Source: Saccostrea cucullata (lineage: Eukaryota). From it: a DNA stretch of 64,000 nt. Below the pieces are notes generated by a model that was given only the letters and a program-made list of their open reading frames with translations, made no database searches and was not told the DNA's origin. Position 1 is the first letter of the stretch. The number at the start of each line of letters is the position of its first letter. The DNA is taken from contig NW_026933711.1 of the NCBI RefSeq assembly GCF_032062105.1, forward strand, positions 310,001-374,000. The letters run 5' to 3'. Shown piece by piece: positions 26,901-63,973 of the stretch. Both the position numbers and the translations under genes were made by a program.

Positions 26901-29900
26901 TGAACAGGTTAAAGTTTTTGGTGCAGGTTTCATTTCCAAGTTTCTATGAGACATATAATGACCAAACTTGCATCGATGGTACATCTTAGGGATGCATACT
27001 AATTCTTGCTTCTGGATTCTGAATCTGACCTACATTTTCCGGTTGAGTGAACAGGTTAAAGTTTTTGGTGCAGGTTTCATTTCCAAGTTACTATGAGACA
27101 TATAATGACCAAACTTGCATCGATGGTACATCTTAGGATGCATATTACAAGACTTGCTTTGGATGCTGAATCTGAACCTACATTTTCCGGTTTTGAACAG
27201 GTTAAAATTTTTGGTGCAGGTTTCTTTTCCAAGGTACTATGAATCTATAATGACTAAAGTTCTTGTTTGTACATCTTAGGATAAATCTTTACCAGACTTT
27301 TCGGATGCTGAATCTGACCTACATTTTGTGGACGAGTAAACAGGTTAAAATTTATGGTGCAGGATGAATTTCCAAGTAACTTTGAGAATTATAATGATCA
27401 AACTTGCATGGATGGTATATATAAGGGTGACATTAATTAGGCTGGCTTCAAACACAGCTGAATCTACCTACATTTTCTGGATTAGTGAAAAGGTTAGTTT
27501 TTTATACAGGTTTCAATTCCAAGTAACTTTGAGCTCTATGTTGAACAAACTTGGATGATACATCTTAGGACGCACACTAATGGACTTGCTTCAGATGCTG
27601 AATTCGACATACATTTTCCAGATAATAGACCTCGTAAAAGTTATGGGTGCAGGTCTATAACCAAGAAACTATACCAAAGTTGCACAAATGATGCATCAAG
27701 ATATGAAAACTCTCAATCTTGCTTCAGATGCTGGATTTTAATTACATTTTCATGATGAAGAACTAGTTTTAAGTTTTTACATAGGTCTATTCCAAAGTTT
27801 CAAAATTGCATAAATTTTGCATTTTTGGATGTACACTTTTTGTTGGTTAATTGTGTGACTTAATTTGCCTTATTCAGATGACTAACATTCGTTGAGGTGA
27901 GCTCTGTAATCTCTGATTACCTATGTTTAATTAATCATAGAGATTTATTACATCTTTTACCCTGAACAAATATTGTTCCTTTGAGAAATATCATTAATGA
28001 ACAAAATATTAAAAATATTTTAATACAATGTACATTGTACCAGCCCAGATTAAAAAAAAAAATAATTAAAACAAAAGTGAAGGTTATGTATATGTGGAAC
28101 TATAGGTTGTCAAGTTTATGTTGTTTGGTCAAGTAATGATCTGAGACCTTGAGAAATCTCACATTTCTAACAGCCATTCTACAAGGCAATTAGTCGGGGA
28201 GGAGTATTGATATTCCATTCAAGCATTCAAAGGACATGAAGTGCAATAGCTAATTTTAAGAGCTGCATTATACAATGAATTTTCTGTGAAATTTAAGGCT
28301 CATTCCAAGTACAGTGAAGAACTAGCTAGCCTAGCTACAAAGATAAATATATACAGAATGAAAATTACTTATAAGTTATTTGTTGATAGAAATACATTGA
28401 TCATTTCTTGATCCTTGAATTTAATGCTAGAAACAGGGGTAATAAGTGGAAAGTGAAAATGTTCAGTAAATGTGTGGGTGTAAGTCAAGGATACATATAA
28501 TGTAACTTCTTGTATCCTGTTTCAGAGTTGGCTTTCCAGGTCAGCTGAATTTTTGCTATGCACTGTATTGTTGAATGGAGTGATTGGTCCCTCCGTCATT
28601 TTCAAGCAACTTCTTGAATGGCTGGATACCCTGGTGCATGTTTTTTAGCAGTAAAATATAAATCTGAAAAGGGATAACTTCAAAAAGTTGTACAGTATAC
28701 ACATATTTTGAATTAATACTGCCTACTCAAATTTCCACATTTTAAACTTTTAATTGTCAAGGACAAGAAGAGTTTATTTGATAGTAAGGTGTCAATCATA
28801 TGTCTGTCTTGTTTGTTTGTCTGATAAACTCTTTATAATTTTTTAATGTTTGAAGTCTCCATCATTATTTTCAAACTTTTCAACTTCCAATGTGAGACAA
28901 TCAAGAAAAGGCAACATGAAATTCACATGCTCTTACCTCAGAATTATAATGAAAATGAAATATAGGACTCAAATATATAATCATGACAATTAATATGACC
29001 CAAACACATCTGATATTATTATGCATTTTGTTTTGTGACTTGCAATATTAAGCCTTGAGAAAGTTCAGCACCATACATTGATTGAGCTGTTTTCTATAAA
29101 CAAAGAATTATTATCATTACAGTATTATTCTACATTGGTATGTAATGAATTAATCCTGACAAAATATAAAGATAGGGATGACAGTCTTCTCTAGATATGA
29201 AGAATAAAAGACTTAAAGCCTAATTTAGTTCTAGTCAGATATTAAAAGTACAGATGACGGGATTCTCTAGATGTGAAGAATAGAGATTTTAAGTTTAATT
29301 CAGTTCCATAGCTAGATATCAGGAGTAGAGATGACAGGATTCTCTAGGTGTGAAGAATAGATAACTGAAATCTAGCTACATATTGATTAAGAGTAGAGAA
29401 TTCTGTAGGGGTGAAAAATAAAGACACTGAGTCTTATTCAGATGTTCTAGCTTGAAATGAGGAATAGAGATGACAGAATTCTCTAGATATGAAGAATAGA
29501 GACTATAAACCTAATTGAAATCTAGCTAGAGATCAAGAGTAGAGATCGTCAGAGGACTGAATTTCGTAGGCGTAGGTGTGAATAATAGAAATTTTAAGTA
29601 TCATTCAGTTTCTCTAGCTAGATATCAAGAGTAGAGATGACTGGATTGTCTAGATGTGAAGAGAGATTTTTAACTTAATTCAGTTTTCCTTGCTAGATAT
29701 CGAGAGTAGAGATGACAGAATTCTTGAGTAGAGACACAAAGCTTAAATCAACTTCCCTAGATAGACAAAACTCTTTTTGTCATGTGAAGTCTTTAGAACC
29801 TTAGTGATTATCCATAAATGGTTCCTTGTATGCATGCTTTGTTAATCTTCCATTGATAGGTAGGGCCTTCTATGTCACTAAACTGCATTTAAGGTAAAAA

Positions 29901-40714: not shown

Positions 40715-42024
40715 GTAGTTATGGATACAGTCATTTACATTTTGTTTTATTTCAGAACAGAGTGCAGCAAGATATTTTTTTATAGTTTTCTGCTCAAGTT
40801 TGAAAATTACTACATCTCCTGACATGTGTTAGATTATCGTAAGGAAATTCAATTTGCATGTTGTTCCAAATTTGATTTTGTTTCACTGACAAAAGTGCAC
40901 ATATGGCTCACAGATGAGCTTTCTCGAATATTTTCTCTGTTATGACACTGGGAAAAAATTAGGCTACGTAATGCTGCCAGCATGTTCAGATCTATAAATA
41001 TCATTTCTCCTCTTTTAAATCAGTTTATTCTTAAAACTTGGTAATAATCTGGAAAAATATCAGATTGAAAAAATTAGCAGACCCTAAAAAATATCATATT
41101 TTGCAAAAATTTCACATGTATAGTGCTTCCAATTACTTGTAAATCAGATTTTTTTTAGCAAACCAGCACAAATTGGCTTTCTTCCCTATCTTGTGAACTG
41201 GTATGCTTTATTCCAGCGGGACTGGAGATAGGTTAGGTTACTGGCTTGTATTAAACTTTATCTTCTATCTTGAAAAAGCGTATGTAAAATTTTCTTGTAA
41301 CTGACAGACATGGCTAATTGGATATTTGGTTTGGTTATTATTTTTCCTTCTTGGGTCATTGGCCACATGAAGTTTTCAAGCTGTCATTATCATGTCAAAA
41401 ACTTGAAAAAAAATATAAGTAAACGTTTTGCATACTTCTTATTGGCCAAGTCTTTCTCACAGAAAGAAGTAGAATAAAAAATCAAATAAACCACTTATCC
41501 ATATGGTTTATCTGTCATGCATAGATAGTCTGGAAACGGGACGTCTCTCTGACAAGCCAAGCAGCCAATGACACCAATTCTCTCTCCATCCAGAACATTT
41601 ATTACTTATCACGGGAGCTAGGTCATTGCACAAAATACTCCCAATTCTTGTTAATTAATGTTTGGAAGTTGAATTTTTAGTCACTGCAAAAGGTAATGTA
41701 TGCAGATTTAATCCATTTGATGGCATCTTGTTCATAGAAACGAGTTTCTTATGACAATTTTACGAGATTGGAGAACTTTTAGTGTTAAAAATTATTAGAA
41801 TGATATCACTTCGAATGAATTAGCAATTTCCAATTGTTGAAGACCATCAACAAGTTCTTACTCTTGGGTGAAAATAAGTTGTCAGAATTTTAATACATTT
41901 GATATGAAATAATATTTATAGGAGTACATTTTGTAATACAGACTGATAGTTATTACTTGATGATAAAGAATTCTCTACTAACTTTGTGTACATGTAGTTG
42001 CTTGCTTAAACATATACATGTATA

Positions 42025-43415
42025 TGTAACGGACCTGAGCTGCTTGGATCTCACACACAAGTACTCCTTAGAAGCCTACACGGGAATAACCCATGTAGTA
42101 CTGTGATTATTTCCGAGAATAACCCGTAAATAAAGATCTCTTATAATAACACAAGAATAACCTGTGTTTGGACTCGTAAATAACTACGGGGAAGTTAAAT
42201 GATAAGCCTTATTTAAAGTTTACAAATTTATTCAATAAATAAAAGTCACAATATGTTTTAATTAGTATTCAATTACAATAAAATTCAATGGAAGTCGGGA
42301 ATCACCCAAATTCACAATGAAATACTACACTAACACAACCTTCGTATTACGTTAATACGATAAAAGGGGGGGGCGCACTAAACGAGAATGACCCGAATAG
42401 TGAATAATAAATACTATAGAAATACCTTAGAATAACCAAAGTATTTCTGAACGAATCTATCCAACTATTTAAAGCAAGAAATTTATCTCTATAATTTCTA
42501 TATCAAATCCTAGCCTTAATTCCTGCTTGAATATTCCAATAAATGCAACTAGATTATCACTTTAAATTGATTGAATTCCTAAAATCTATCAAAGATAAAC
42601 AATTATTTACACGGAAAGACTTCAAGACTCACTTTCAGTCAAACCGTAACAAGATTATTTAATCGTTCAATATCGAGATTAACCCAATATAAACGTCCTA
42701 CGATAAATACTAGTAATTAATAGTGAAACGAGATTAACCCGTATTCACTATAAGAAAAATTGATGAATTAATTCAAAAAAATTACTAAATTCCTAATGAA
42801 AAATGCTAAGAATCAAATAAACAACCGCTAACCTCAAAATCTAAATGCCGAGTCCCACCGGCAGTTCTTATCCTCTGCTTATATCGCTCTGGAGAGTCCC
42901 CCCGGAGACCCACGCGCTTCCCTAGGGACGACCGGCAGATCTCCGGTATCACCGGCAGTCACCGGCAGCCACCGGCAATAATCATTGTCAAAATATGTTT
43001 AATAATTACAATAGATAATCGATATAAAAATATGACAATCATAATGTAAAACATTTATACAATATGACAATATTCCCTAAGTATTAGATTTCGATAAAAA
43101 TGCTTAGTACAGAGAAATTACAATTAGAATCGGGTGTGATATTCCACTAAATAATCAACATGATGGCGGTATCTATAAATAAAGTTACAGAGTTAGAAAC
43201 GATATTTACAACAAATCTAGCGTATTACAATACTGATATTAATCCAGGATAATAAAATTATAATAAAAGATCGTTCTCTTCTATATATGTAAGTACAGTG
43301 AATCATAATAAGAAATTTAACCATTATGCGATCTACAAATCATGGTATCAAATCAATGTATAGGGTAACATGAAATCTATATAAAACAAACTGCATCATT
43401 GTCACAATCGTGACA
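42025..43415 (-). repeat. Extra outer 3' LTR (copy A, 1391 bp), abutting LTR B with no spacer
   Basis: Full-length third copy ending ...GTTACA next to the TSD. Confidence 0.92.
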
Positions 43416-44818
43416 TTTAACGGACCTGAGCTGTTTGGATCTCACGCACAGATACTCCTTAGAAGCCTACACGGGAATAACCCATGTAGTACTGTGATTA
43501 TTTCCGAGAATAACCCGCAAATAAAGATCTCCTATAATAACACAAGAATAACCTGTGTTTGGACTCGTAAATAACTACGGGGAAGTTAAATGATAAGCCT
43601 TATTTAAAGTTTACAAATTTATTCAATAAATAAAAGTCACAATATGTTTTAATTAATATTCAATTACAATAAAATTCAATGGAAGTCGGGAATCACCCAA
43701 ATTCACAATGAATTACTACACTAACACAACCTTCGTATTACGTTAATACGATAAAGGGGGGGGGGGCGCACTAAACGAGAATGACCCGAATAGTGAGTAA
43801 TAAATACTATAGAAATACCTTAGAATAACCAAAGTATTTCTGAAAGAATCTACACAATCTATAAAAGCTATTTAAAGCAAGAAATTTATCTCTATAATTT
43901 CTATATCAAATCCTAGCCTTAATTCCTGCTTGAATATTCCAATAAACGTAACTAGATTATCACTTTAAATTGATTGAATTAAAATCTATCAAAGATAAAC
44001 AATTATTTACACGGAAAGACTTCAAGACTCACTTTCAGTCAAACCGTAACAAAATTATTTAATCGTTTAATATCGAGATTAACCCAATATAAACGTCCTA
44101 CGATAAATACTAGTAATTAATAGTGAAACGAGATTAACCCGTATTCACTATAAGAAAAATTGATGAATTAATTCAAAAATTACTAAATTCCTAATGAAAA
44201 ATGCTAAGAATCAAATAAACAACCGCTAACCTCAAAATCTAAATGCCGAGTCCCCCTGCAGTTCTTATCCTCTGCTTATATAGCTCTCGACAGTCCCCCC
44301 GGAGACCCACGCGCTTCCCTAGGGACGACCGGCAGATCTCCGGTACCACCGGCAGTCACCGGCAGTCACCGGCAATAATCATTGTCAAATAACGTTTAAC
44401 AATAACAATAAATAATCGGCATAAAAATATGACAACCATAATGTAAACCATTTATACAAAATGATAATATCCCCTAAGTATTAGATTTCGATAAAAATGC
44501 TTAGTACAGGGAAATTACATTTAAAATCGGGCGTGATATTCCACAAAATAATCATCATGATGGCGGTTTCTATAAATAAAGTTTCAGAATCAGAAACGAT
44601 AATTACAACTAATTCAGCTTATTACAATACTGATATTAATCCAGGATAATAAAATTAGAATCATAAGATCATGTTCTTCTAGAAACGTAAGTACAGTGAA
44701 TCAATAATAAGAAATGTAACCGATTATGCGATCAACAAATGGGGGGAAAGTATCAAATACAAACAGGGTAGCACGAATCCTATATAAAACAATCGGCATC
44801 ATTGTCACAATCGTGACA
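43416..44818 (-). repeat. Inner 3' LTR (copy B, 1403 bp; divergent, terminal CA lost)
   Basis: Directly follows the PPT; ends ...GGTCCGTTAAA instead of ...GTTACA. Confidence 0.92.
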
Positions 44819-44831
44819 TTTTCCCCCTCTT
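44819..44831 (-). other. Polypurine tract
   Basis: AAGAGGGGGAAAA immediately before TGTCAC of LTR B. Confidence 0.88.
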
Positions 44832-45125: not shown

Positions 45126-45800
45126 CTAGCCATTGTCAAAGGTCTTGTACGCAGATTTTCCAGCACCATCTTGAATCCGACTCACTTTTGTGAAAGGTAT
45201 TTTACAGCCATTCATGGCAATAAAGCTGTCATTCAAATTGATAACTGCAGGCCCAAATTGACTGTCCAACAAGATGTCCGTACCTAAGAGGCATTCATCT
45301 TCTATTCCCGCAACAGTTATCTCCCTTTGAAATTCTAGATTTCCTAACTGCACTGCAAATTCAGCCTTCCCTAAGACTTGAAGTGGGTCTCCATTGACCG
45401 CTACAAGGCTTGAAGATTCCTTTAGCTCTGGTCTTTTGTTCCCGGGGAGTCTCCAAAATATTTTGTCGGATAAGATAGTTCTTGCAGCCCCTGTGTCTGC
45501 TGTGAACTCCACTTTTATCCCTTGAATCGTTCCCTGAACGTAAATTCCATCCGCCTTGAGGAGCTGTCTCCTAATGTACTCCCTCTGAGTACACAGTTCC
45601 TCTTCCCTTGAAACGTCCCTGACGCAAGGCTGGAATTTCCCCTGGTTTTCAATTTTCTCCCCCGACTCATCTAAATTTCCACTTAAAATAGGTTCAGTTA
45701 AAATTTTACAGTCATTTTGGCCTTTGTTATTTTGGGTCGTCTCTTGGCCTCCGGAGCTGACCCCTTCTAGTTTAACGGCTTCTCCATTTTGTCTCTGCAA
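45126..45800 (-). CDS. Retropepsin-type aspartic protease in the -1 frame of gag (truncated pol)
   Basis: FTADTGAARTILS catalytic motif and CLLGTDIL C-terminal motif; overlaps the gag end; stops shortly after the protease domain. Confidence 0.88.
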   Translation of the reverse strand: MQRQNGEAVKLEGVSSGGQETTQNNKGQNDCKILTEPILSGNLDESGEKIENQGKFQPCVRDVSREEELCTQREYIRRQLLKADGIYVQGTIQGIKVEFTADTGAARTILSDKIFWRLPGNKRPELKESSSLVAVNGDPLQVLGKAEFAVQLGNLEFQREITVAGIEDECLLGTDILLDSQFGPAVINLNDSFIAMNGCKIPFTKVSRIQDGAGKSAYKTFDNG

Positions 45801-47335
45801 TCATTATCTAAGTCTCCATTCCATGTTGATTGTTGACTTGGTTGAAATTCTGATGCATCAGGTGACATGGTACTTGTAGCTTGGCTTTGGTTTGTCTCTG
45901 GCTGGTCATCTTTACTTGGTAGAGATGATGACATAGTTTTCTCAGGAGTTTTCCTGTACTGTGATTTCTCTGTCCTGCGAAAATTTCTATCCGGACACTC
46001 TCTGGCATAATGTCCGGGCATGCTGCAAATAAAGCAATTCCCTTTCGTCATCTTCACGGGATTTGCATTTCTCTTCTCAGCATAGCAATTGTCTCCCTTT
46101 CCATAATTCTTAGTCTGTCTAATAGGGTGTCTCTCTTCATTTGTGGTCATATTGGAGGTGACTGACATATAAGCAGCTACCTGCTGTACTGCCTCTTCAA
46201 TTGTTGATGGTTCTTTGTGTAATTCAATGTACTGCCGTGCCTTTGAATCCCATAAACCTTGCAAAAATTTTGAAATCAGGTCTTCCTGTCTGGTGCTGGC
46301 ATCTCTACTTGGGTGAGCCCAGTCATAAAGACGCTTAATGTCAGCAGCATACTCTTCAAGACTTTCATCTTTTCTTTGCCTTTTGTTGTTGAATTGAGTT
46401 TTGTACACTCTCTTATTTTCCAGTGTTCCAAATCTGGATTCTATTTCTGCGACTAAAGTCTCATAGTTCCCTATAATCTCCTTCTTCAGCTGACCAAAAA
46501 CAAAATCAGCTGCAATTCCCTGTATTCTTGGTAATATCTGTTGTAACTTCTCTTTAGCAGTCCACTCGGCCAACTCGGCTACAGACTCGAAGCGATTCAG
46601 CCAAACTCTCCATTTCTCGGAACCTGTGTAAGGCGGAAGCTTACAGTCAAGCTTGTGGCTATCTGACTTCTTCGACTCGAACAAATCCCTTGTGGCAATT
46701 GAATTGACAGATTGCTCCTTTTCAGACTGTTCTGAATCTTCATTTGATTCCTCATGATTGCTTTCCTTAGTTTCTGTCTCTGATTTGTTGTTGTTTGAAT
46801 TGATTCTCGAAATTCTAGGTTTCAGCTTGTTGTTTGTTGTTTGGCTGTTCACTTGTCCGAGATTTCGGGTAGTCACTTCCATCATATCCTGCATGACTTT
46901 CACTGTCTGGTTGCTTACTTGTCTGAGAGTTTGAGTAGTTGCTTCCATCATATTCTGCATGGCTTTCATTGTCTGGGCCATCTGTTCCATCATTATCTTC
47001 AAAGGGTCTGTGATAGAATTATTCTGTGATGACTGTGTAACTGGTTCTGACAGTTCTGTGTCTGTAGGGATTATCTCCCTTTGCTGACGTACAGTCCTTT
47101 TGGATCTTCTTATTTTTCTAATAGGCGTTGATATTCTAGCCTGAGTATCTGAGTCATCTTCATCCTCTGTAGAGTTGTCATTGTTGGACATGCTCTGTTC
47201 CCCTCGGAGTGATCTGTTTAACGCTGACGGCGATAAATCTATGAGGAGTTCCTCATCTGTGGATTGTCCTCTGGTATGTCCGGGATTAACGGATGGCTCC
47301 ATCCTAGTCTTAGATCTGGTATAGTACCTATGCAT
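45767..47335 (-). CDS. gag: Retrotransposon Gag (capsid plus CCHC zinc-knuckle nucleocapsid), 522 aa
   Basis: KLPPYTGSEKWRVWLNRFE capsid start; QRKDESLEEYAADI MHR-like motif; CFICSMPGHYAREC knuckle; uninterrupted ORF. Confidence 0.92.
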   Translation of the reverse strand: MHRYYTRSKTRMEPSVNPGHTRGQSTDEELLIDLSPSALNRSLRGEQSMSNNDNSTEDEDDSDTQARISTPIRKIRRSKRTVRQQREIIPTDTELSEPVTQSSQNNSITDPLKIMMEQMAQTMKAMQNMMEATTQTLRQVSNQTVKVMQDMMEVTTRNLGQVNSQTTNNKLKPRISRINSNNNKSETETKESNHEESNEDSEQSEKEQSVNSIATRDLFESKKSDSHKLDCKLPPYTGSEKWRVWLNRFESVAELAEWTAKEKLQQILPRIQGIAADFVFGQLKKEIIGNYETLVAEIESRFGTLENKRVYKTQFNNKRQRKDESLEEYAADIKRLYDWAHPSRDASTRQEDLISKFLQGLWDSKARQYIELHKEPSTIEEAVQQVAAYMSVTSNMTTNEERHPIRQTKNYGKGDNCYAEKRNANPVKMTKGNCFICSMPGHYARECPDRNFRRTEKSQYRKTPEKTMSSSLPSKDDQPETNQSQATSTMSPDASEFQPSQQSTWNGDLDNDCRDKMEKPLN

Positions 47336-47396
47336 GGATTTTTCTCAACACTGGTTCTGGGTTACGTATCTCTGGATCCACCGATGTACTTGGCAG

Positions 47397-47414
47397 ATCC
47401 CACCGCTGCCACCA
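47397..47414 (-). other. Primer-binding site complementary to the tRNA-Leu 3' end
   Basis: TGGTGGCAGCGGTGGGAT is the 18-nt complement of ATCCCACCGCTGCCACCA (3' end of metazoan tRNA-Leu AAG-type including CCA), 2 nt after the 5' LTR. Confidence 0.9.
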
Positions 47415-47416
47415 AA

Positions 47417-48813
47417 TGTAACGGACCTGAGCTGCTTGGATCTCACACACAAGTACTCCTTAGAAGCCTACACGGGAATAACCCATGTAGTACTGTGATT
47501 ATTTCCGAGAATAACCCGTAAATAAAGATCTCTTATAATAACACAAGAATAACCTGTGTTTGGACTCGTAAATAACTACGGGGAAGTTAAATGATAAGCC
47601 TTATTTAAAGTTTACAAATTTATTCAATAAATAAAAGTCACAATATGTTTTAATTAGTATTCAATTACAATAAAATTCAATGGAAGTCGGGAATCACCCA
47701 AATTCACAATGAAATACTACACTAACACAACCTTCGTATTACGTTAATACGATAAAAGGGGGGGGCGCACTAAACGAGAATGACCCGAATAGTGAATAAT
47801 AAATACTATAGAAATACCTTAGAATAACCAAAGTATTTCTGAACAAATCTATCCAACTATTTAAAGCAAGAAATTTATCTCTATAATTTCTATATCAAAT
47901 CCTAGCCTTAATTCCTGCTTGAATATTCCAATAAATGCAACTAGATTATCACTTTAAATTGATTGAATTCCTAAAATCTATCAAAGATAAACAATTATTT
48001 ACACGGAAAGACTTCAAGACTCACTTTCAGTCAAACCGTAACAAGATTATTTAATCGTTCAATATCGAGATTAACCCAATATAAACGTCCTACGATAAAT
48101 ACTAGTAATTAATAGTGAAACGAGATTAACCCGTATTCACTATAAGAAAAATTGATGAATTAATTCAAAAAAATTACTAAATTCCTAATGAAAAATGCTA
48201 AGAATCAAATAAACAACCGCTAACCTCAAAATCTAAATGCCGAGTCCCCCCGGCAGTTCTTATCCTCTGCTTATATCGCTCTGGAGAGTCCCCCCGGAGA
48301 CCCACGCGCTTCCCTAGGGACGACCGGCAGATCTCCGGTATCACCGGCAGTCACCGGCAGCCACCGGCAATAATCATTGTCAAAATATGTTTAATAATTA
48401 CAATAGATAATCGATATAAAAATATGACAATCATAAAGTAAAACATTTACTACAATATGACAATATTCCCCAAGTATTAGATTTCGATAAAAAATGCTTA
48501 GTACAGAGAAATTACAATTAGAATCGGGCGTGATATTCCACAAAATAATCAACATGATGGCGGTTTTCTATAAATAAAGTTTCAGAATCAGAAACGATAT
48601 TTACAACAAATCTAGCGTTTTACAATACTGATATTAATCCAGGATGTTAATATGATAATAATAGATCGTTCTCTTCTATATGTGTAAGTACAGTGAATCA
48701 AATAAGACGAAATTTAACCGTTTATACGATCTACAAATCATAGTATCAAATCAATGTATAGGGTAACATGAAATCTATATAAAACAAACTGCATCATTGT
48801 CACAATCGTGACA
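47417..48813 (-). repeat. 5' LTR (copy C, 1397 bp)
   Basis: TGTCACGATTGTGACA...GGTCCGTTACA, followed on the - strand by TT and the PBS. Confidence 0.93.
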
Positions 48814-49838
48814 TATATATTGTTTTAGGTTTTAACTTTGAAAAATCTTAGATTTAGATATTGTCTAAGTTAACATGGATTAGCAGAAAAACTTATCAAA
48901 GAATTTTTTTTTTTTGATGAGCATTGTAAAATTGTCAAATTCATGAGATGTCCATTCTATGCATTGACTTATCTTATGAATTGTCATTTGATGATTTGTT
49001 GTATCTATGAGGTGGCTTTGTCTTACATGAAGTATGAAGTTTCACATATGTTTTAGTTTTGGGTTATAAATTATGCACACACAAAATTGACAATTATTCT
49101 TTAAATAATAAGTTGATACAATATAACTTTGCCTCTCTTATGTAAAAACTAATTTTTAACCTCTCTATTAAATATACAATTAAAAATTGCATGCACACAC
49201 TGATGGACAATTACGATTTGCCCATGTCTCGTTAGATTAATTACATTCTTACCTAAAGTCAGTGTTCAAAAGTATACATTGCATGAAAGGGGGCGTGGCA
49301 GCTCTATCATGAGTGTAGATTACATTACAATGTAAGTGACCAATGACCTCGGTTAGATTTTTCTTTATTAATTATACAGCTAACTTCACCAGAGAGTGTC
49401 ATTGCTATCTAAACTGTTGGCACTTGGCTGTAAAGAAAAGACTATGATGAATGAGAATGTTCAGGTCAGGTCATTACTATGGGGTGAAAAATAAAGGGGG
49501 TGATGTTTCTTACAACGTTAAGTCATATGATGGAACTATTTATTTATAATACAGGAAGAGATGAGTTATAAGGGGATCTTTATTTTAGAGGAAATTCTTT
49601 TTGCTGTTGATTTCAGTGTAGTTTTGAAAAGGTAGGATTTGATAATCTTCAAGCCAAACTTTTTTTTCATCTAAGCTTTAAGAAGACTTATGAAAACTAT
49701 AAATCAGTGCAAAAGAGGGTACATGTATATTAAAAGAATTATTAATAAACAATAAAATTTTATAAGACAGAAATAATCTGAATGGTTTGAATTTATTTTG
49801 CTACCATTTTTTTTTTGTTATGCAAGCATACAATTTTT

Positions 49839-50346: not shown

Positions 50347-50407
50347 TTAGCTCTACTGGTCAGAGACCAGAAGAGCTTATGCGATAGTAATGCGTCCGGC
50401 GTCCGTC

Positions 50408-50442
<35 letters not shown>

Positions 50443-51863
50443 CTGTCCGTCTGTCTGTAAACAATTTTTCAAAATGCTACTCCTCCTACAACTTTAGTCT
50501 GATTTCAATATTACTTGGCACACAAGTAGACTACACTAAGATACATAGAATAGTGCATCGGTTTTTGATTTCGATGAACGGTGTTGCCATGGTTACTAAA
50601 AATAGAATTTTCTGTGAAATTCCTTTAAAACGCTACTCCTTCTACAGTTTTTGTCTGATTTCAATATAACTTGGCACACAAGTAGACTACACTAAGATAC
50701 ATAGAATAGTGCATCGGTTTTTGATTTCGATGAACGGTGTTGCCATGGTTACTAAAAATAGAATTTTCTGTGAAATTCCTTTAAAACGCTACTCCTTCTA
50801 CAGTTTTGGTCTGATTTCAATATAACTTGGCACACAAGTAGACTACACTAAGATACATAGAATAGTGCATCGGTTTTTGATTTCGATGAACGGTGTTGCC
50901 ATGGTTACTAAAAATAGAATTTTCTGTGAAATTCCTTAAAAACGCTACTCCTTCTACAGTTTTTGTCTGATTTCAATATAACTTGGCACAAAAGTAGACT
51001 ACACTAAGATACATAGATTATGTGCATCGGTTTTTGATTTCGATGAACGGTGTTGCCATGGTTACTAAAAATAGAATTTTCTGTGAAATTCCTTCAAAAT
51101 GCTACTCCTTCTACAGTTTTTGTCTGATTTCAATATAACTTGGCACACAAGTAGACTACACTAAGATACATAGAATAGTGCATCGGTTTTTAATTTCGAT
51201 GAACGGTGTTGCCATGGTTACTAAAAATAGAATTTTCTGTGAAATTCCTTAAAAACGCTACTCTTTCTACAGTTTTTGTCTGATTTCAGTATAACTTGGT
51301 ACACAAGTAGACTACACTAAGATACATAGAATAGTGCATCGGTTTTTGATTTCAATGAACGGTGTTGCCATGCTTACAAAAAATAGAATTTTCTATGAAA
51401 TTCCTTTAAAATGCTACTCCTTCTACAGTTTTGGTCTGATTTCAATATAACTGGGCACACAAGTAGACTACACTAAGATACATAGAATAGTGCATCGGTT
51501 TTTAATTTCGATGAACGGTGTTGCCATGGTTATTAAAAATAGAATTTTCTGTGAAATTCCTTAAAAACGCTACTCTTTCTACAGTTTTTGTCTAATTTCA
51601 GTATAACTTGGTACACAAGTAGACTACACTAAGATACATAGAATAGTGCATCGGTTTTTGATTTCGGTGAACGGTGTTGCCATGGTTACTAAAAATAGAA
51701 TTCTCTGTGAAATTCCTTTAAAACACTACTCCTTCTACAGTTTTGGTCTGATTTCAAAATAAGTTGGCACACAAGTAGACTACACAAAGATACATAAAAT
51801 AGTGCAATGGTTTTTGATAAGTACAAACCAGTAGAGCTACAGTCTCGACAGAGACTTCTGGTT
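50347..51863 (+). mobile_element. Young non-autonomous Helentron with about 9 x 156-bp tandem monomers
   Basis: TTAGCTCTACTGG...CCAGTAGAGCTA subTIRs, (GTCC/GTCT)n, AGTCTCGACAGAGACT 3' palindrome. Confidence 0.88.
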
Positions 51864-52558
51864 ATGTAAGCATAGTGTGTGTTCTGTCAGAGATTATCTA
51901 TGATCTCAACACTATTTTTTGTTGGCAGGGCTCACACAAGTTACGAAGGTTGCATTGCACAAGTCAGTATAATTTCTTGTAGTTATAAATATGAACTTAC
52001 TATGCCAATTGCATGCATCTCATTATCCTATGTTGAGGATAATTCTGATGGAATATTTTTATTTGTTTTGGGTATAGAATATTTTGCATCCAATGCAATA
52101 CACAAGTCAGAAGAAAATTCAGCATTAGGGTTGGTTGTCAACTTCAAGCTTCATTCCTCTGGAAGAATATATTGTAGGATGTCCTTTGAAAAAATGGAGC
52201 AGGTTAATTTTTTTTTGTGAATAAAGCAGCATATATTGACTGATCTTGCATGGGTGATACATCTAAAGATGTATAGTACCAGGCTTGTTTTGTATGCTGG
52301 ATCTGACCTTCAATCATTTTCTACACGAGTGACCAAGTTAAGGTTTTGGGAGCAGGTTCATTCAAGAATAACTACATTGTAAAAAAACTTTTTTGCCTTC
52401 TGGGCGCAAAATTGGAAAATAAAATTATCTTATCTAATTACAAGACTTATGTTGACCAAACTTGCATGGATGACAAATTTACGGATGCACACTACCAAGC
52501 TTGCTTCAGATGCTGGATTTGACCTAAATTTTCTAAATGAAATACCAGGTTCAAGTTT

Positions 52559-52619
52559 TTAGCTCTACTGGTCAGAGACCAGAAGAGCTTATGCGATAGT
52601 AATGCGTCCGGCGTCCGTC

Positions 52620-52654
<35 letters not shown>

Positions 52655-53594
52655 CTGTAAACAATTTTTCAAAACGCTACTCCTCCTACAATTTTAGTCT
52701 GATTTCAATATAACTTGGCACACAAGTAGACTACACTAAGATACAAAGAATAGTGCATCGGTTTTTGATTTCAATGAACGATGTTGCCATGGTTACTAAA
52801 AATAGAATTTTCTGTGAAATTCCTTAAAAACACTACTCCTTCTACAGCTTTGGTCTGATTTCAATATAACTTGGCACACAAGTAGACTACACTAAGATAC
52901 ATAGAATAGTGCATCGGTTTTTAATTTCGATGAACGGTGTTGCCATGGTTACTAAAAATAGAATTTTCTGTGAAATTCCTTAAAAACGCTACTCCTTCTA
53001 CAGTTTTGGTCTGATTTCAATATAACTTGGCACACAAGTAGACTACACTAAGATACATAGAATAATGCATCGGTTTTTAATTTCGATGAACGGTGTTGCC
53101 ATGGTTACTAAAAATAGAATTTTCTGTGAAATTCCTTAAAAACGGTACTCCTTCTACAGTTTTGGTCTGATTTCAATATGACTTGGCACACAAGTAGACT
53201 ACACTAAGATACATAGAATAGTGCAATGGTTTTTGATTTCGATGAACGGTGTTGCCATGGTTACTAAAAATAGAATTTTCTGTGAAATTCCTTAAAAACG
53301 CTACTCCTTCTACAGTTTTGGTCTGATTTCAATATAACTTGGCACACAAGTAGACTACACTAAGATACATAGAATAGTGCATCGGTTTTTAATTTCGATG
53401 AACTGTGTTGCCATGGTTACTAAAAATAGAATTTTCTGTGAAATTCCTTTAAAACGCTACTCCTTCTACAGTTCTAGTTTGATGTCAAAATGAGTTGGCA
53501 CACAAGTAGACTACACAAAGATACATAAAATAGTGCAATGGTTTTTGATAAGTACAAACCAGTAGAGCTACAGTCTCGACAGAGACTTCTGGTT
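52559..53594 (+). mobile_element. Second copy of the same Helentron (about 6 x 156 bp), nested in an older 146-bp-array Helentron (about 52240-54010)
   Basis: Ends identical to 50347-51863; inserted at TT; the host ends with the same palindrome type as 26389-27927. Confidence 0.85.
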
Positions 53595-55539
53595 TGGACT
53601 AGGTTTTGTTATCAAAAAAACTAAAAGCCTTATATTGACCAAACTTCAATGTTTTATACATCTATAAAGGATGTACACTACCACACTTGTTTCTGATGCT
53701 GGATCTGACCTTCATTTTCCAGATGAGTGAACAAGTTAAGGTTTTTAAGCAGATTCATTCTAAAGTAACTATAGAATCTCAGTCTTGCTTCAGATGCTGG
53801 ATTTGACCTACATTTTCCAGGAAAGTGTCTAGGTTGACATTTCTGGAGCAGGTCCATTCTCAAGCAACTTTAAGACCTTCATGAGCCAAACTTGCATGGA
53901 TGATGCATTTAGGGATGCACACTACTAGATTATATATTTAGTGTGGGACTTTGCCTTACTTAAAGACAACATTTGTTGAGATGAGCTCTGTAATCTCTAA
54001 TTACTTATGTTTTTCCTCTTATATTAGAATTACAATTGTGTGGAGAAAGGAATTAACTGAAGCTGTAGCCAGTAGTAATCAGAAGAGGTGTATATCAATA
54101 TTACGTATTAATCAACATGGAAAAAAAACTGTGTTGAATTACAGTCACCCCATTATGTATAGTGATGAGCTGTACATCTGATGATTAAAAAAAAATGGAA
54201 GATAATATGAAATATTGGATCAGAATTTGCCAACTGTCAGCAAAATTTATAATTAATGTGAAATTAAAAAAAAAAGATTGTCTTTGGGACTCATACTAAA
54301 AATTGATGGCTACTATGGGACTTTAAATTCAGTTGATTAAATGTTTTTCATTACTTAAGATTTATTGTTCTAATTACTTGTGGATTTGTCGTATATCTTT
54401 TGTACATCCTGCTTCATTTTATTGTCTCTAACCTGTGCATTAGATAATGACTGTTTGCACTTTAGTTCCATCTTGAGACATTTGGCCAAGGCTTGCATTA
54501 CCTGGCTCGGTTGTCCTATTGACCTGATTTTGTGGAATTAATTCATTGCCCTCGGCATTACAGGTATTACTTCATTTAAGGCATGTGACTTCATACATAT
54601 TCCAAAAACTGTCTTATTGTATTTTAATTTATAGTCATTAATTACTTGATAATAGTATTTTCAGATAGTCACAGTAATTAACAGTCATGTATTTATAGTT
54701 CTTGGTGTGGTAAATTGTGTCATCTAGCTTGTCCACAAATTAGACTTTTGGACTATTCAAAATACTTGAGCCAAAAAAGGTTCAAAGTTCAAGAGCAGAT
54801 CTTTTGACTCGTGGTCAAAGGTAAAATGTGTGATTTTTCAGGGGCATTGTGACAAAGAAATACATCTGGTTTACTTACACTGTAATAAATAATTCACTGG
54901 AAAAATAATTGATTTTATTGGTTTGATTGCATTCTTATTTGTATCATTTTCTATTGCTTGAGGATATGAATCAGTTTCTGAATAGGGATTATAACACCTT
55001 AATATTATTAGAGCAACATTATTAGAATTATAAACCTTTAGGAATTCTTCTCACTTGAACAACATTTTCTCCTACTGGTAGAAGTTTTGGAGTTCTTCTT
55101 TTAATTTTAGTTGGTTTCCTAGTTATTTAGACATGAACATTAGAACATTCTAGGGAAAGGGCGTTTTAAGTTTGCAGAACTTGCGCCCAATCCCTTTGTA
55201 ATTATATTACAATAAAATATGTTCAAATCAACATAAGAAAAATTAGCAGACACCTTTACTGTAAACTGGATTTTGTCAGAATCGATTAAGCTGCAACTCA
55301 AAGGATATTCTTTATTGTCAGTTTTCCTGCATAACATTAAATTTTTAGATTAATAAAGAATGAATCGTTTAAACGTCCACATTTGGCCCCCCGATAATTT
55401 ACAAAAAATAAATTTAAACATTTTCTACATATTTTTGTCTCAATCTTTCCATCAAACATTGTAGTTTTTAAATTTCTTTTTCAATTTTCACTTCCTTGCA
55501 CTGTAATTGAGTATTTATCTGATTAATATAGCAGGGGTA

Positions 55540-59514: not shown

Positions 59515-60215
59515 TTTGTCCGTCTATCTTGTCACCTTCTCACATTGTCAACTTCTTCTCTAGAACCACTGGGCCAATTTTAACCAAACTTGGTACAAAG
59601 CAATGCTGGGTGAAGGGGAGTTTCAATTATTAAACTGAAGGGCCAAATCCCCTTACATGGGGAGATAATCAAGAAAAGACAAAATAGGGTGGGGTCATTA
59701 AAAAACTTCTTCTCAAGAACCACTGTGCCAGAAAAGCAGAAATTTATGTGGAAGCATCCTTGGGTAGTGTAGATTCTAAATTTTTAAAAGCATGACCCCT
59801 GGGGTTAGGACAGGGCCACAATAGGGAAACCAAGTTTTACATTGAAATATATAGGAACAATCTTCTCCTCAAGAACCACTGGACCACAAAAGCTGAAACT
59901 TATGTGGAAGCATCCTGGGGAAGTATAGATTCTAAATTGTTAAAATCATGGCCCCGGGGGGTAGGCCGGGTCCACGATAGGGAATCCAAATTTAACATAA
60001 AAATACATCAGTAAAAATCTTCTAAAGAACCACTGGGCTAGAAAAGCTGAAACTTAAATGGAAGCATCCTTGGGTAGTGTAGATTCTAAATTGTCCAAAT
60101 CATGTCCCCTGGGGGAAGGGTGTGGCCACAATAGGTATCACAAGGGGGAAATCTGGTAAGGAACAGCATGGCCATAGTTACTCAGGTGAGCAATGCGGCC
60201 CATGGGCCTCTTATT
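59470..60215 (+). mobile_element. Cg170-type non-autonomous Helentron (same family as 645-3907)
   Basis: Same subTIRs, about 3 monomers, GGCCCATGGGCC palindrome. Confidence 0.82.
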
Positions 60216-61373
60216 CCAAGTTGACATGTGTTCTTGGCAGCAGTGGATTGCCTTAACAATTTTTTGCTAAGGATTGAAATGTTCTTAATTTTACTTTTTC
60301 TTAAGTGAAGATGTAATCAAATGAGTGTGTACCCACTGTGTTTAAGGCATGTCACAGGTCACCATGTTCAATTTCAGCAACATCTAGTGCCAAACATTTA
60401 AAAAAAAACTGTGATTTAGGAGATCTTTAAAAGTAAAAGAAGCTATTCTGAAAGATAAAAATCAAGCCTGCAACATCATCCTTGGCCTTGGCTTTATTTC
60501 ATTATGTGAGGTAATGTGTCATAGGGAGAAGTACGCTATGAGATGCATGCATTAGAATCTGGGTCGAGCCGTTTATTTGCATAATGTAAGAAACAGAAAT
60601 TTTTTTTGACAAGGTGCCCGAAATCTGCATGATACCTGGTGTAATCAGTTGTGATCTCGGTGGAGAATACTTTAGATGAAGAATGGAATCTCTATCTAGA
60701 AACTGAATGAGGGGAAGGGGTTATCTCAAAATAAACAGGGATTGTTGTTATTAGGATAATAGTTAAAAAAAAGAGATAATTTCTGATGACTTGGCTTTTT
60801 GTGAACATTATTTTTAAGGATTTCTCTATTAAAGTACATTGGATAGATCCAATCCCAGGGTACTATGATAAGCCTTACATGGACCATACTAGGCATGGAT
60901 AAGGCATTTAGGGATGAAGTCACTAACAAACTAGCCTATATTTGCCAGATGAGTGAATATTAGTACATGTACTAGCATGGACATAATATTATTCTAGGGG
61001 TGAAGTATACTTTTATCCTCTGTTGCACCAAGCCCTTACACTTATAGATATAATTTCATAATCTTTCATTACCCTATGTTTATAACAAAAGAACTCTTGT
61101 GTAACTTATGATATTTATTTGAAGAGATGAGATGTTAGCCTTGACAAATTTATGATTTTTAAGCTATAATGAACTTTAAATTAATGCTTCATTTTAATTT
61201 CTTTGAATCTTGTTTACATTAATTGGTCCATTTCAATGTAATAAATCCTTCTAAAATGAAAGCACTAAAATTGTTTGTTGCTTGAAAAAATACTTCAAAT
61301 CTTAAAAAAACTTAACCTTTTAAATAAGTGTTAGGTTGACAAATTTATGATTTTAAAATTATTTTGATGCTAA

Positions 61374-61631
61374 GGCCATGCAAAATTAATTCCTTGGTTC
61401 TCAGGCCTTTTTTCAAGAAATATGATGAGGGAGGGAGGCATTTTTTTTTACTTTTTATTGCCCCCGAAACATGATGAGGCTGCTTTTTACATTGTACAAA
61501 ACCTCAAAAAATGATGAGGGAGGTGATTTGTTGTTTTTATTTTATTGATTTAGCAATAAAAAGGGTCAATGAGGTGCCCTTGAAAGAGATGAGGGAGGGC
61601 CTGAGAACCAAGAAATTAATTTTTTTTGGCC
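61374..61631. mobile_element. PIF/Harbinger (Tourist-like) MITE
   Basis: taa|GGCCA...AATTAATTCCTTGGTTCTCAGGCC and GGCCTGAGAACCAAGAAATTAATT...TGGCC|taa. Confidence 0.75.
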
Positions 61632-61685
61632 TAATGATTAAAATTTTATAGGTAAATATTCAGTGAAGGGAACATTTCATATATT

Positions 61686-62973
61686 TTTGTCCCCCGCTTT
61701 CGCGAAAGCGAGGGGACATTAAATCTCATTCGTCTGTCTGTCTGTCCATCAGTTTGTCGGTCCGTCAGTCTGTCCGTCACAAAAACTTTAACCTTGCCCA
61801 TAACTTTTGATTTAGTAGAGCTATGACTTTCATATTTCAGATGTGTATTCCTTGTGACAAAACCTTTCTTTGGGTACCACCAAATTTGACCTTTTGACCT
61901 TGACCTTGGAGTTTGACCCACTTTTACACAGAAATTTCAAACTTTTACTTTGGCCATAACTTTTGAATGGAAGGTACTAGGACTTTCATATTTCACAAAT
62001 GTATTGTTTGTGGAAAGACCTTTCATTGGATACCAACATCCTTGACCTTTTGATCTTGACCTTGGAGATTTCCGTATCTATGAAAAAACTTTAACCTTGG
62101 CTATAACTTTTGAACAATAAGTACTACAGCTTTCATACTTCACATTTATAATCCTGATGAAAAGATCTTTCATTGGATACCAAGAACTTTTACCCTTTGA
62201 CCTTGACCTTGGAGTTTCAACTACTTTTTAAAAACTTTAACCTTGGTCACAACTTTTGTATTCCTTGTTGCAAGACATTTCATTGGATACCAACAACCTT
62301 GACTTTTTGACATTGACCTTGGAGATTTACTTACTTATGGAAAAACTTTAACCTTGACCATAACTTTTGAACGGTGAGGGCTAGGGCTTTCGTACTTCAC
62401 ATATGTAATCTTTTTGAGAAGACCTTTCATTGGATACCAACAACTTTTACCCTTTGACCTTGACATTGGAGTTTTAACTACTTTTAAAAAAAACTTTAAC
62501 TTTGGTCACAACTTTTGAACGGTAGATACTAGGACTTTTATATTTCACATATGTATTCTTTGTGACAAGTCCTTTCATTGGATATCAACAACTTTGACCG
62601 TTTGACCTTGACCTTAAAGATTTACGTACTCATGTAAAAACTTTAACCTTGACCACAACTTTTGAACGATAAGGGCTAGGGCTTTCATGCTTCACATATG
62701 TAATCCTTGTGAGAAAACATTTCATCAACAACTTTGACCCTTTGATCTTGACCTTGGAGTTGACCTACTTTTAAAAAACGTTAACTTTGGCCATAACTTT
62801 TTAACGGTCAGGATAAGGGTTTTCATCCTTCAAAAAAATCAACTTCAATGATAATTTCTATGAAATGACATATGATAGGATGTTCATATTAGACACAATA
62901 TGTCATAAAAAATAACATCTCACCAACAAAGACATTGAAAGCGGGGGACCACAATTCTTTGAATTTGCTTGTT
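61686..62973 (+). mobile_element. Non-autonomous Helentron with a ~147-bp array
   Basis: GTCCCCCGCTTT subTIR, microsatellite, TTGACCTT-rich monomers, 3' AAAGCGGGGGAC plus palindrome plus CTTGTT. Confidence 0.8.
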
Positions 62974-63121
62974 TATTATACATTTTAATTGTTCTAATAT
63001 ATTTATTTAAACCCATGCACTGTCTAAGTTTACCACTCCAATCAATCATAAGAAATAAAAAGAAAGTATTAATTTGAATAGAAGGTTGTCTGCATACACT
63101 ATAAACATACCCCTTTTGTTG

Positions 63122-63973
63122 TTGTCCCCCGCTTTCGCAAAAGCTAGGGGACATTAAATCTCATTCGTCTGTCCGTCAGTTTGTCAGTCTGTCCGTCACA
63201 AGAACTTTAACCTTGCCCATAACTTTTGATTTAGTGTAGCTATGACTTTGATATTTCACATGTGTATTCCTTGTGACAAGAACTTTCTTTGGGTACCACC
63301 AGATTTGACCTTTTGACCTTTACCTTGGAGTTTGACCCACTTCAACACAAAAATTCCAAACTTTTACTTTGGCCATAACTTTTGAATGGTAGATACTAGG
63401 ACTCTCATATTTCACATATGTATTCTTTGTGGCAAGACCTTTCATTGGATACCAACAACTTTGACCTTTTGACCTTGACCTTAGAGATTTCTGTACTTAT
63501 GAAAGAAATTTAACCTTGACCATAACTTTTGAATGGTAAGGGCTAGGGCTTTCATACTTCACATATGTAATTCTTGTGAGATGACCTTTCATTGGATACC
63601 AAGAACTTTAACCCTTTGACCTTGACTTTGGAGTTGACCTACTTCTAAAAAGTTTTAACCTTGGCCATAACTTTTGAACGGTTAGGGTTAAGGTTTTCAT
63701 CCTTCACAAATGTATTACTTGTAACAAAACCTTTCTTAAGAAACCAACAACTCAGACCCTTTCACCTTGGAGTTTGACCTAGCTTTCAAAAATTTATCCT
63801 CAACTATAACTTGAACAGGTGGTGCTAGGGATTTAGTATTTCACAATCGTATTTCTTGTGAGAAAAAACCTGCTTTGGGTAATAATATTATTATTTAATT
63901 TGCATTTAAGAAAAGTTTAATCTTCGTTATGTTGCCATACAGGGTCATCAGTGTTTCACAAACATATCTTGTT
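63122..63973 (+). mobile_element. Second copy of the same Helentron with a different 3' end
   Basis: Same 5' end and array; ends GTGTTTCACAAACATATCTTGTT. Confidence 0.75.

Follow-up and report, generated by a model that had tools for sequence, protein, structure and literature searches.

Three-LTR insertions with a TSD, matched outer LTRs and, in all cases, two internal domains were described by Sabot and Schulman (2007; PMC1950507), who attributed them to two co-packaged RNAs copied in one round of reverse transcription. We consider these template-switching complexes to be the closest known system to the locus described here. The accessible text of a rice survey (bioRxiv 10.1101/452573) gives the outer pair of LTRs as the closest one in six of its complete cases, and recombination between co-packaged RNAs has been reviewed (PMC6894440, accessible sections). 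According to the portions available of the respective articles, 2-LTR circles arise by end-joining (PMC3148978), and alt-EJ factors are reportedly needed for second-strand synthesis by fly and mouse elements (bioRxiv 2022.09.25.509424). In their accessible parts, PMC11899658 covers shared-LTR tandems of plants, and a fly study (PMC5932611) mentions rarer direct LTR-LTR junctions, referring to its Table S2. The exact three-LTR form reported below was not found in the accessible text of the literature searched, which included few subscription papers and to which the fly Table S2 may be relevant.

The stretch of DNA that we analysed, hereafter called the window, comprises 64,000 nucleotides of the Saccostrea cucullata assembly. 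A preliminary description had proposed that an element on its minus strand has the order LTR C, PBS, gag-pro, PPT, LTR B, LTR A within one TATA TSD. This order was confirmed, with intact TG..CA at both outer ends and AA between B and A. The features are as follows, in the 5' to 3' direction of the element:

48814..48817, minus strand: TATA, 5' copy of the TSD (4 bp)
47417..48813, minus strand: LTR C, the 5' LTR, TG..CA, 1397 nt, sister of LTR A
within 47417..48813, minus strand: in LTR C, TATA-box-like TATAAG at LTR position 539 and AATAAA at 1190
47397..47416, minus strand: TT spacer and 18-nt PBS (TGGTGGCAGCGGTGGGAT)
45767..47344, minus strand: gag frame, 525 aa from stop to stop
45126..45800, minus strand: aspartic protease frame, 224 aa
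44828..44863, minus strand: predicted RNA hairpin adjoining the PPT
44819..44831, minus strand: PPT, last letters AAAA, directly before LTR B
43418..44818, minus strand: LTR B, the middle LTR, foreign, 1401 nt, with 3' letters GTTA and without terminal CA
43416..43417, minus strand: AA at the B/A joint
42025..43415, minus strand: LTR A, the outer 3' LTR, TG..CA, 1391 nt, sister of LTR C
42021..42024, minus strand: TATA, 3' copy of the TSD

The B/A joint reads CCGTTA-AA-TGTCAC, exactly as had been claimed. It harbours no TSD and no CA after B, only AA, the dinucleotide found directly before U3 in all normal 3' LTRs of the family. Judged from the window alone, the loss of the CA of B may be a plain C>A substitution; a CA-TG junction, too, would amount to two joined ends, and a second locus, described below, shows unprocessed ends. 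A 4-bp duplication flanks 22 of the 26 family insertions checked and is thus the family norm, so that TATA has the right length for a TSD. The sequence next to it is rich in TA (ATATATA on the left side), so that TATA, taken alone, is weak evidence of a TSD. Elsewhere in the window, arrays of 63-64 bp repeats with internal inverted symmetry are found in opposite orientations (16041-16352 and 19817-21688), and tandem arrays with units of 156 bp, 165 bp and 145-156 bp (50397-53676, 729-1709, 59546-63769 and 26646-27645) are probably satellite or Helitron-like repeats.

A Pfam profile search of gag-pro returned PF14893, PF00098 (below cut-off), PF13975 and PF13650, the gag frame giving a PNMA-type capsid match (E 9e-7) and a CCHC zinc knuckle just below the curated cut-off. 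Gag and the protease, which lies in the -1 frame, overlap at GTTAAAC-TAG. This motif at the gag end (window 45767-45775) is a candidate frameshift site into the protease, and the 45 nt around it show 84% conservation across related elements, autonomous as well as non-autonomous. Downstream of the protease, we found no RT, RNase H or integrase in the window element or in any close family copy. The 18-nt PBS presumably matches the 3' end of tRNA-Leu; no tRNA genes were found in the window.

The TG..CA LTRs, the PBS after the 5' LTR, the PPT before the 3' LTR, the short TSD, the gag with a zinc knuckle and the aspartic protease are features of Ty3/gypsy elements. The pol order PR-RT-RH-IN is absent from the window element and present in the nearest autonomous relative that we saw (L073, G000:C21913), whose protease is 47% identical, and it is from this relative that we infer the placement of the family with Ty3/gypsy. 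The window element would thus be a non-autonomous gag-pro retrotransposon of the Ty3/gypsy group (Metaviridae), with three LTRs in one 4-bp duplication. L073 differs from the family in its LTRs and PBS and is a relative rather than a demonstrated helper. Several other young gag-pro families without RT are found in the same genome (L078-L092), with LTR pairs that are 95-99.9% identical and frames of ~630 and 390-410 aa.

We compared the three LTRs separately over U3 and R-U5, the latter taken as LTR position 571 onward, just past the TATA-like box at 539. Between C and A we counted 1 difference in 828 R-U5 columns and 20 in 562 U3 columns, compared with 18/821 and 71/564 for C and B, and 17/821 and 67/562 for A and B. 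R-U5 differs by at least 0.6% (median 5.0%) in 351 LTR pairs drawn from separate loci, none of which reaches the similarity of C and A. Within the set of fetched loci, A carries nine private alleles, all of which recur at the matching positions of C, and the ten private sites of B in the same set are different ones. B-specific alleles span columns 24-1395, and A and C carry the other allele throughout. C and A are therefore a sister pair, and B is foreign, unlike both over its whole length.

The differences between C and A are in excess in U3 (20/562 vs 1/828; Fisher p 1.5e-7), where 19 substitutions, together with indels, cluster at U3 positions 72-377; the substituted alleles are partly family-shared and partly private. 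A single template does not explain this cluster, so that a third template or later gene conversion is needed. B was excluded as the conversion donor, as A lacks the interspersed alleles of B. The patch is not peculiar to the window locus, since the two-LTR copies L006, L032 and L002 show similar clustering. A test for a common parent, correlating R-U5 of B with U3 of A, gave rho 0.34 (p 0.08). The two-LTR copy L002 (L002:1733-7153, G000:C1181) has unlike LTRs (46 of 567 U3 columns) and no 4-bp TSD, and its 3' LTR comes closest to B in R-U5; it is probably a recombinant of two insertions.

The same architecture was found once more in the assembly. Contig C12837 carries, in order, TCTA, an LTR that holds later nested insertions, the PBS, internal bases 1-1461, the 84-nt right end of an LTR, CA-TT-TGGTG-AAAAA, a complete LTR and TCTA. 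An 11-nt microhomology (AATCACAGTAC) is present between internal base 1461 and the 84-nt piece. Across 1366 columns the outer LTRs show a single difference. Compared with each of them, the middle piece has two differences in 84 positions, one of which is an allele private to the outer pair, and it is identical to B at 82 of 82. The identity pattern of matched outer and unlike inner LTRs thus rests on two cases, the second with two informative sites in 84 nt.

Between the middle piece and the 3' LTR of C12837 lie 12 nt that include remnants of the PBS and the PPT. At both loci the joint falls at most 7 nt from the two cDNA ends: the right LTR end stops 4 nt short in the window and runs 5 nt into the PBS at C12837, and the left LTR end is preceded by two A in the window and by five A at C12837. 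As a right LTR end is set against a left LTR end in both cases, we interpret the joints as cDNA ends joined without integrase. Junctions of retroviral circles likewise show trimmed ends or PBS and PPT remnants. C12837 has another site, another TSD and another joint, yet its outer LTRs are matched as well; the form is recurrent and not inherited.

We searched the 1.17-Gb genome with the protease and obtained 19 matches of at least 87% identity, none with a long pol frame. Eighteen distinct internal-domain copies of the family were mapped, near-duplicate contigs being counted once, along with many solo or partial LTRs. A genome-wide search with the junction pattern GGTCCGTTA N0-30 TGTCACGAT returned two matches and none for the control; exact patterns of this kind miss changed termini, joints with more than 30 nt in between and larger losses of the ends. 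The second match is C12837, at its own TSD and with a different joint, so that the LTR-internal-LTR-LTR architecture has one independent recurrence. A looser junction pattern was dropped because its 224 matches, vs 213 for the control, were at chance level. In a census of LTR starts (83 rows, 60 distinct places), 2 of the 60 follow an LTR end. The preliminary description had asked whether the family passes on the doubled LTR as a heritable trait; in this assembly it does not, each joint occurring once and the two together accounting for two of these 60 starts.

Odd LTR ends among the matches listed (C607, C18261, C12594, C13194, C8234, C11442 and others) are not LTR-LTR joints: C11442 has two LTRs and internal deletions, and some of the fetched stretches with odd ends have no match to the LTR or internal query. 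No abutting LTR pair was found in 20 stretches of related gag-pro and autonomous families, a weak test at 10 kb each. The family also includes an LTR-internal-LTR-internal-LTR tandem within one GGGT duplication (L038:9734 to L020:1773, G000:C6408), with one difference between the 5' and middle LTRs, seven between the middle and 3' LTRs and eight between the outer pair. A comparable tandem is present in a related family (L088/L089).

We compared the internal sequence upstream of B with that of 14 copies. The last 200 internal bases are nearest to those of L027 and L014 (one and two differences), whose U3 starts are B-like, and the preceding 200 bases are nearest to those of L002 and L023 (two and four differences), which have the most A-like U3 starts of the set. 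By rank correlation, the last-200 block gave rho 0.44 (p 0.12) with the U3 start of B, and the upstream block gave rho 0.55 (p 0.044) with C and rho 0.19 (p 0.51) with A. These comparisons, in a family whose sequence is a fine mosaic, suggest that B may have brought along its PPT and the 100-200 bases upstream of it, a linkage that is post hoc and weak by rank.

An element-free allele of the window locus is present in one other sample. Bridging contigs from four runs join window position 41916 to 48811-48880, one of them with ~345 bases in place of the ~6,960 found in the window; the site is therefore empty in that sample, although the single target copy is unreadable. Contigs of four runs gave neither an empty-site bridge nor the joint at C12837, and are uninformative there in either direction. 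The flanks of both loci are single-copy in the assembly, and flank searches of the assembly revealed no second haplotype of either.

We propose that both elements arose in one round of reverse transcription involving two template RNAs, the right end of one cDNA being joined to a left LTR end of the other and integrase acting on the outer ends, a reading to which we assign a probability of roughly 0.55. The anatomy, the LTR identities, the TSD and the second independent case are observations, and the template steps are reconstructed from them. Two family RNAs, a and b, would be copied in one particle or cell. Plus-strand strong stop made from strand a would yield LTR C, and the growing plus strand would then finish on strand b, copying the last 100-200 internal bases, the PPT and the LTR of b up to its tRNA-primed end. 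This end would be joined without homology to strand a at the PPT/U3 border, by a jump of the reverse transcriptase or by host end-joining, either before integration or in the repair just after it, and LTR A would be copied from strand a. Integrase supplied in trans would act on the two a-type ends. It is the matched outer LTRs and the single TSD that point to one template for the outer ends and to integrase there. A version restricted to the minus strand fails, because priming at the sole PPT would put B on the left end too.

The earlier suggestion that an end-joined cDNA intermediate was integrated is thus retained in part: the end-to-end joint of cDNA ends without TSD stands, and the simple 2-LTR circle or concatemer is not supported. 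A plain circle or cDNA dimer is disfavoured because C and A are sisters and B differs, the opposite of what those intermediates predict. Also supported is the suggestion that LTR A supplied the working right end; the outer ends are intact TG..CA with a single TSD. We put forward only tentatively, as a possibility that we doubt, that the LTR-internal-foreign LTR-LTR form is a regular second-strand by-product of this family (2 of 18 internal-domain copies).

The predicted hairpin upstream of the PPT is strong, and its core is kept in 16 of 16 family copies. As a guess, it could stall strand a at that place. The heptanucleotide TTTGGTG occurs exactly twice in the element, at the U5/PBS border and in the hairpin core. 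Related elements (L073, L080, L083 and L087) have stems of other sequence at the same place before the 3' LTR; the pre-PPT hairpins have an AGGA or GGGA loop and lie directly 5' of the PPT. Other gypsy elements carry a similar motif. In one copy (L004:5878-5913 and L003:2198, G000:C21863), the left end lies ~35 nt before U3, at a TG in the pre-PPT hairpin, and the copy still has a perfect 4-bp TSD (TGTA); an aberrant left cDNA end appears to have been taken by integrase in this case.

Several other origins were weighed against this two-template scheme. Two whole cDNAs might have been joined end to end, as in the concatemer of the preliminary description, or each might have been integrated by one end and the two then joined by repair, the second unit being cut later to a solo LTR by LTR-LTR recombination in either case; taken jointly, we rate these variants as unlikely. 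Both joints do resemble joined cDNA ends, solo LTRs are common in the family, and NHEJ joins retroviral cDNA ends (PMC3148978, accessible sections). However, trimming a dimer of ordinary cDNAs predicts that C equals B, and at both loci C equals A. For such an origin, the LTRs of the first unit must have been unlike, the second unit must have been of the 5'-LTR type and a deletion must have followed, all of this twice, and no untrimmed four-LTR dimer is found among the 18 internal-domain copies.

A tandem of the kind described by Sabot and Schulman could have lost its second internal domain with the help of the 7-nt TTTGGTG, an origin that we consider rather improbable. Under their model, the outer LTRs should match, the middle LTR should differ and there should be one TSD (PMC1950507), and a shared-LTR tandem with a single TSD (GGGT) exists in the family at C6408. 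For C12837, this route is favoured by the presence of TTTGGTG at either end of the internal domain; the joint there, CA-TTTGGTG-A-AAAA, can be read as a TTTGGTG microhomology plus a 24-nt loss, which also explains the fifth A. Nevertheless, a deletion between the two TTTGGTG copies would keep ~30 nt including the PPT, and both joints lack the PPT; the window joint has no PBS letters, and the arrangement U5-TTTGGTG-hairpin-PPT is found at none of the 60 LTR starts of the census. In the C6408 tandem, moreover, the close pair is the 5' and middle LTRs, not the outer pair.

A merging of two haplotypes or loci during assembly seems improbable to us at a lower level still. The assembly is fragmented and heterozygous, with 23,869 contigs and near-duplicates such as C22565 and C9038. 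Against a mis-assembly, the B/A joint offers the assembler no overlapping homology and sits on both cDNA ends, it is paralleled at C12837 by a joint that retains PBS and PPT remnants, and the flanking sequences occur once in the assembly and run on without a break in another sample.

A single crossover of a 2-LTR circle into a resident solo LTR that already had a TSD is very improbable. It yields the order LTR-internal-LTR-joint-LTR with one TSD, and retrotransposons do form such circles (bioRxiv 2022.09.25.509424, accessible text), but it requires the start of A and the end of C to resemble B, and the B-specific alleles at columns 24-1395 leave no crossover point. It is contradicted unless the LTRs of the circle were unlike and one of them was a sister of the solo LTR. 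A b-type element that inserted independently into a normal element at its PPT/U3 border, and of which only a solo LTR then remained, is harder still to credit: the outer LTRs would stay matched, AAAA does precede B, and tandems are known to arise by double insertion (PMC5932611, accessible text), but CA and a 4-bp duplication should follow B, where the window has just AA, and the CA-TT-TGGTG of C12837 is an unprocessed end. Copying of the doubled LTR as a heritable trait from a master element can practically be set aside, for although the architecture is common to two loci, their joints differ and each occurs once in this assembly, and PPT-primed copying would put B on the left as well, where the start of C is unlike B.

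The three-LTR form is present in the assembly, recurrent and not heritable, and its ingredients are all known. A recurring form with a fixed identity pattern would record in genomes the step by which animal LTR retrotransposons complete their second strand, including its transfer between molecules, and lends itself to an easy census; the pattern common to these 2 of 18 copies tells mechanisms apart, and its instances in other genomes can be counted. If the form is a regular second-strand by-product, it would be a countable footprint of intermolecular plus-strand transfer and host end-joining, and the search rule for long-read genomes would be matched outer LTRs, a foreign inner LTR and a joint at both cDNA ends. 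Extra or unlike LTRs can mislead LTR-pair dating and solo-LTR counts. If both cases are merely trimmed dimers or tandems, they are a curiosity among known retrotransposon rearrangements.

With non-autonomous gag-pro elements, the window element has in common the TG..CA LTRs, the tRNA PBS, the PPT, the 4-bp TSD, the CCHC gag and the -1 protease. As far as the accessible text of the articles goes, the fly and plant tandems (PMC5932611, PMC11899658) resemble it in having head-to-tail LTRs at one site, but they are mostly shared-LTR tandems produced by unequal exchange or double insertions that keep the target site, neither of which fits the joints. A 2-LTR circle, as presented in the available sections on such molecules, has the same junction of a U5 end with a U3 start and no TSD, but it joins the identical LTRs of one cDNA, whereas the window joint links unlike LTRs. 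Unlike a circle, the window unit lies in a chromosome, and it has a third LTR as well as outer ends of the integrase type. The complexes of Sabot and Schulman share with the window element and C12837 three LTRs, one TSD and outer LTRs that are the most alike. They differ in having two internal domains around a shared middle LTR, where the window element has one domain; its middle and 3' LTRs are separated by AA, and those of C12837 by 12 nt, in a non-homologous joint of cDNA ends without a second domain.
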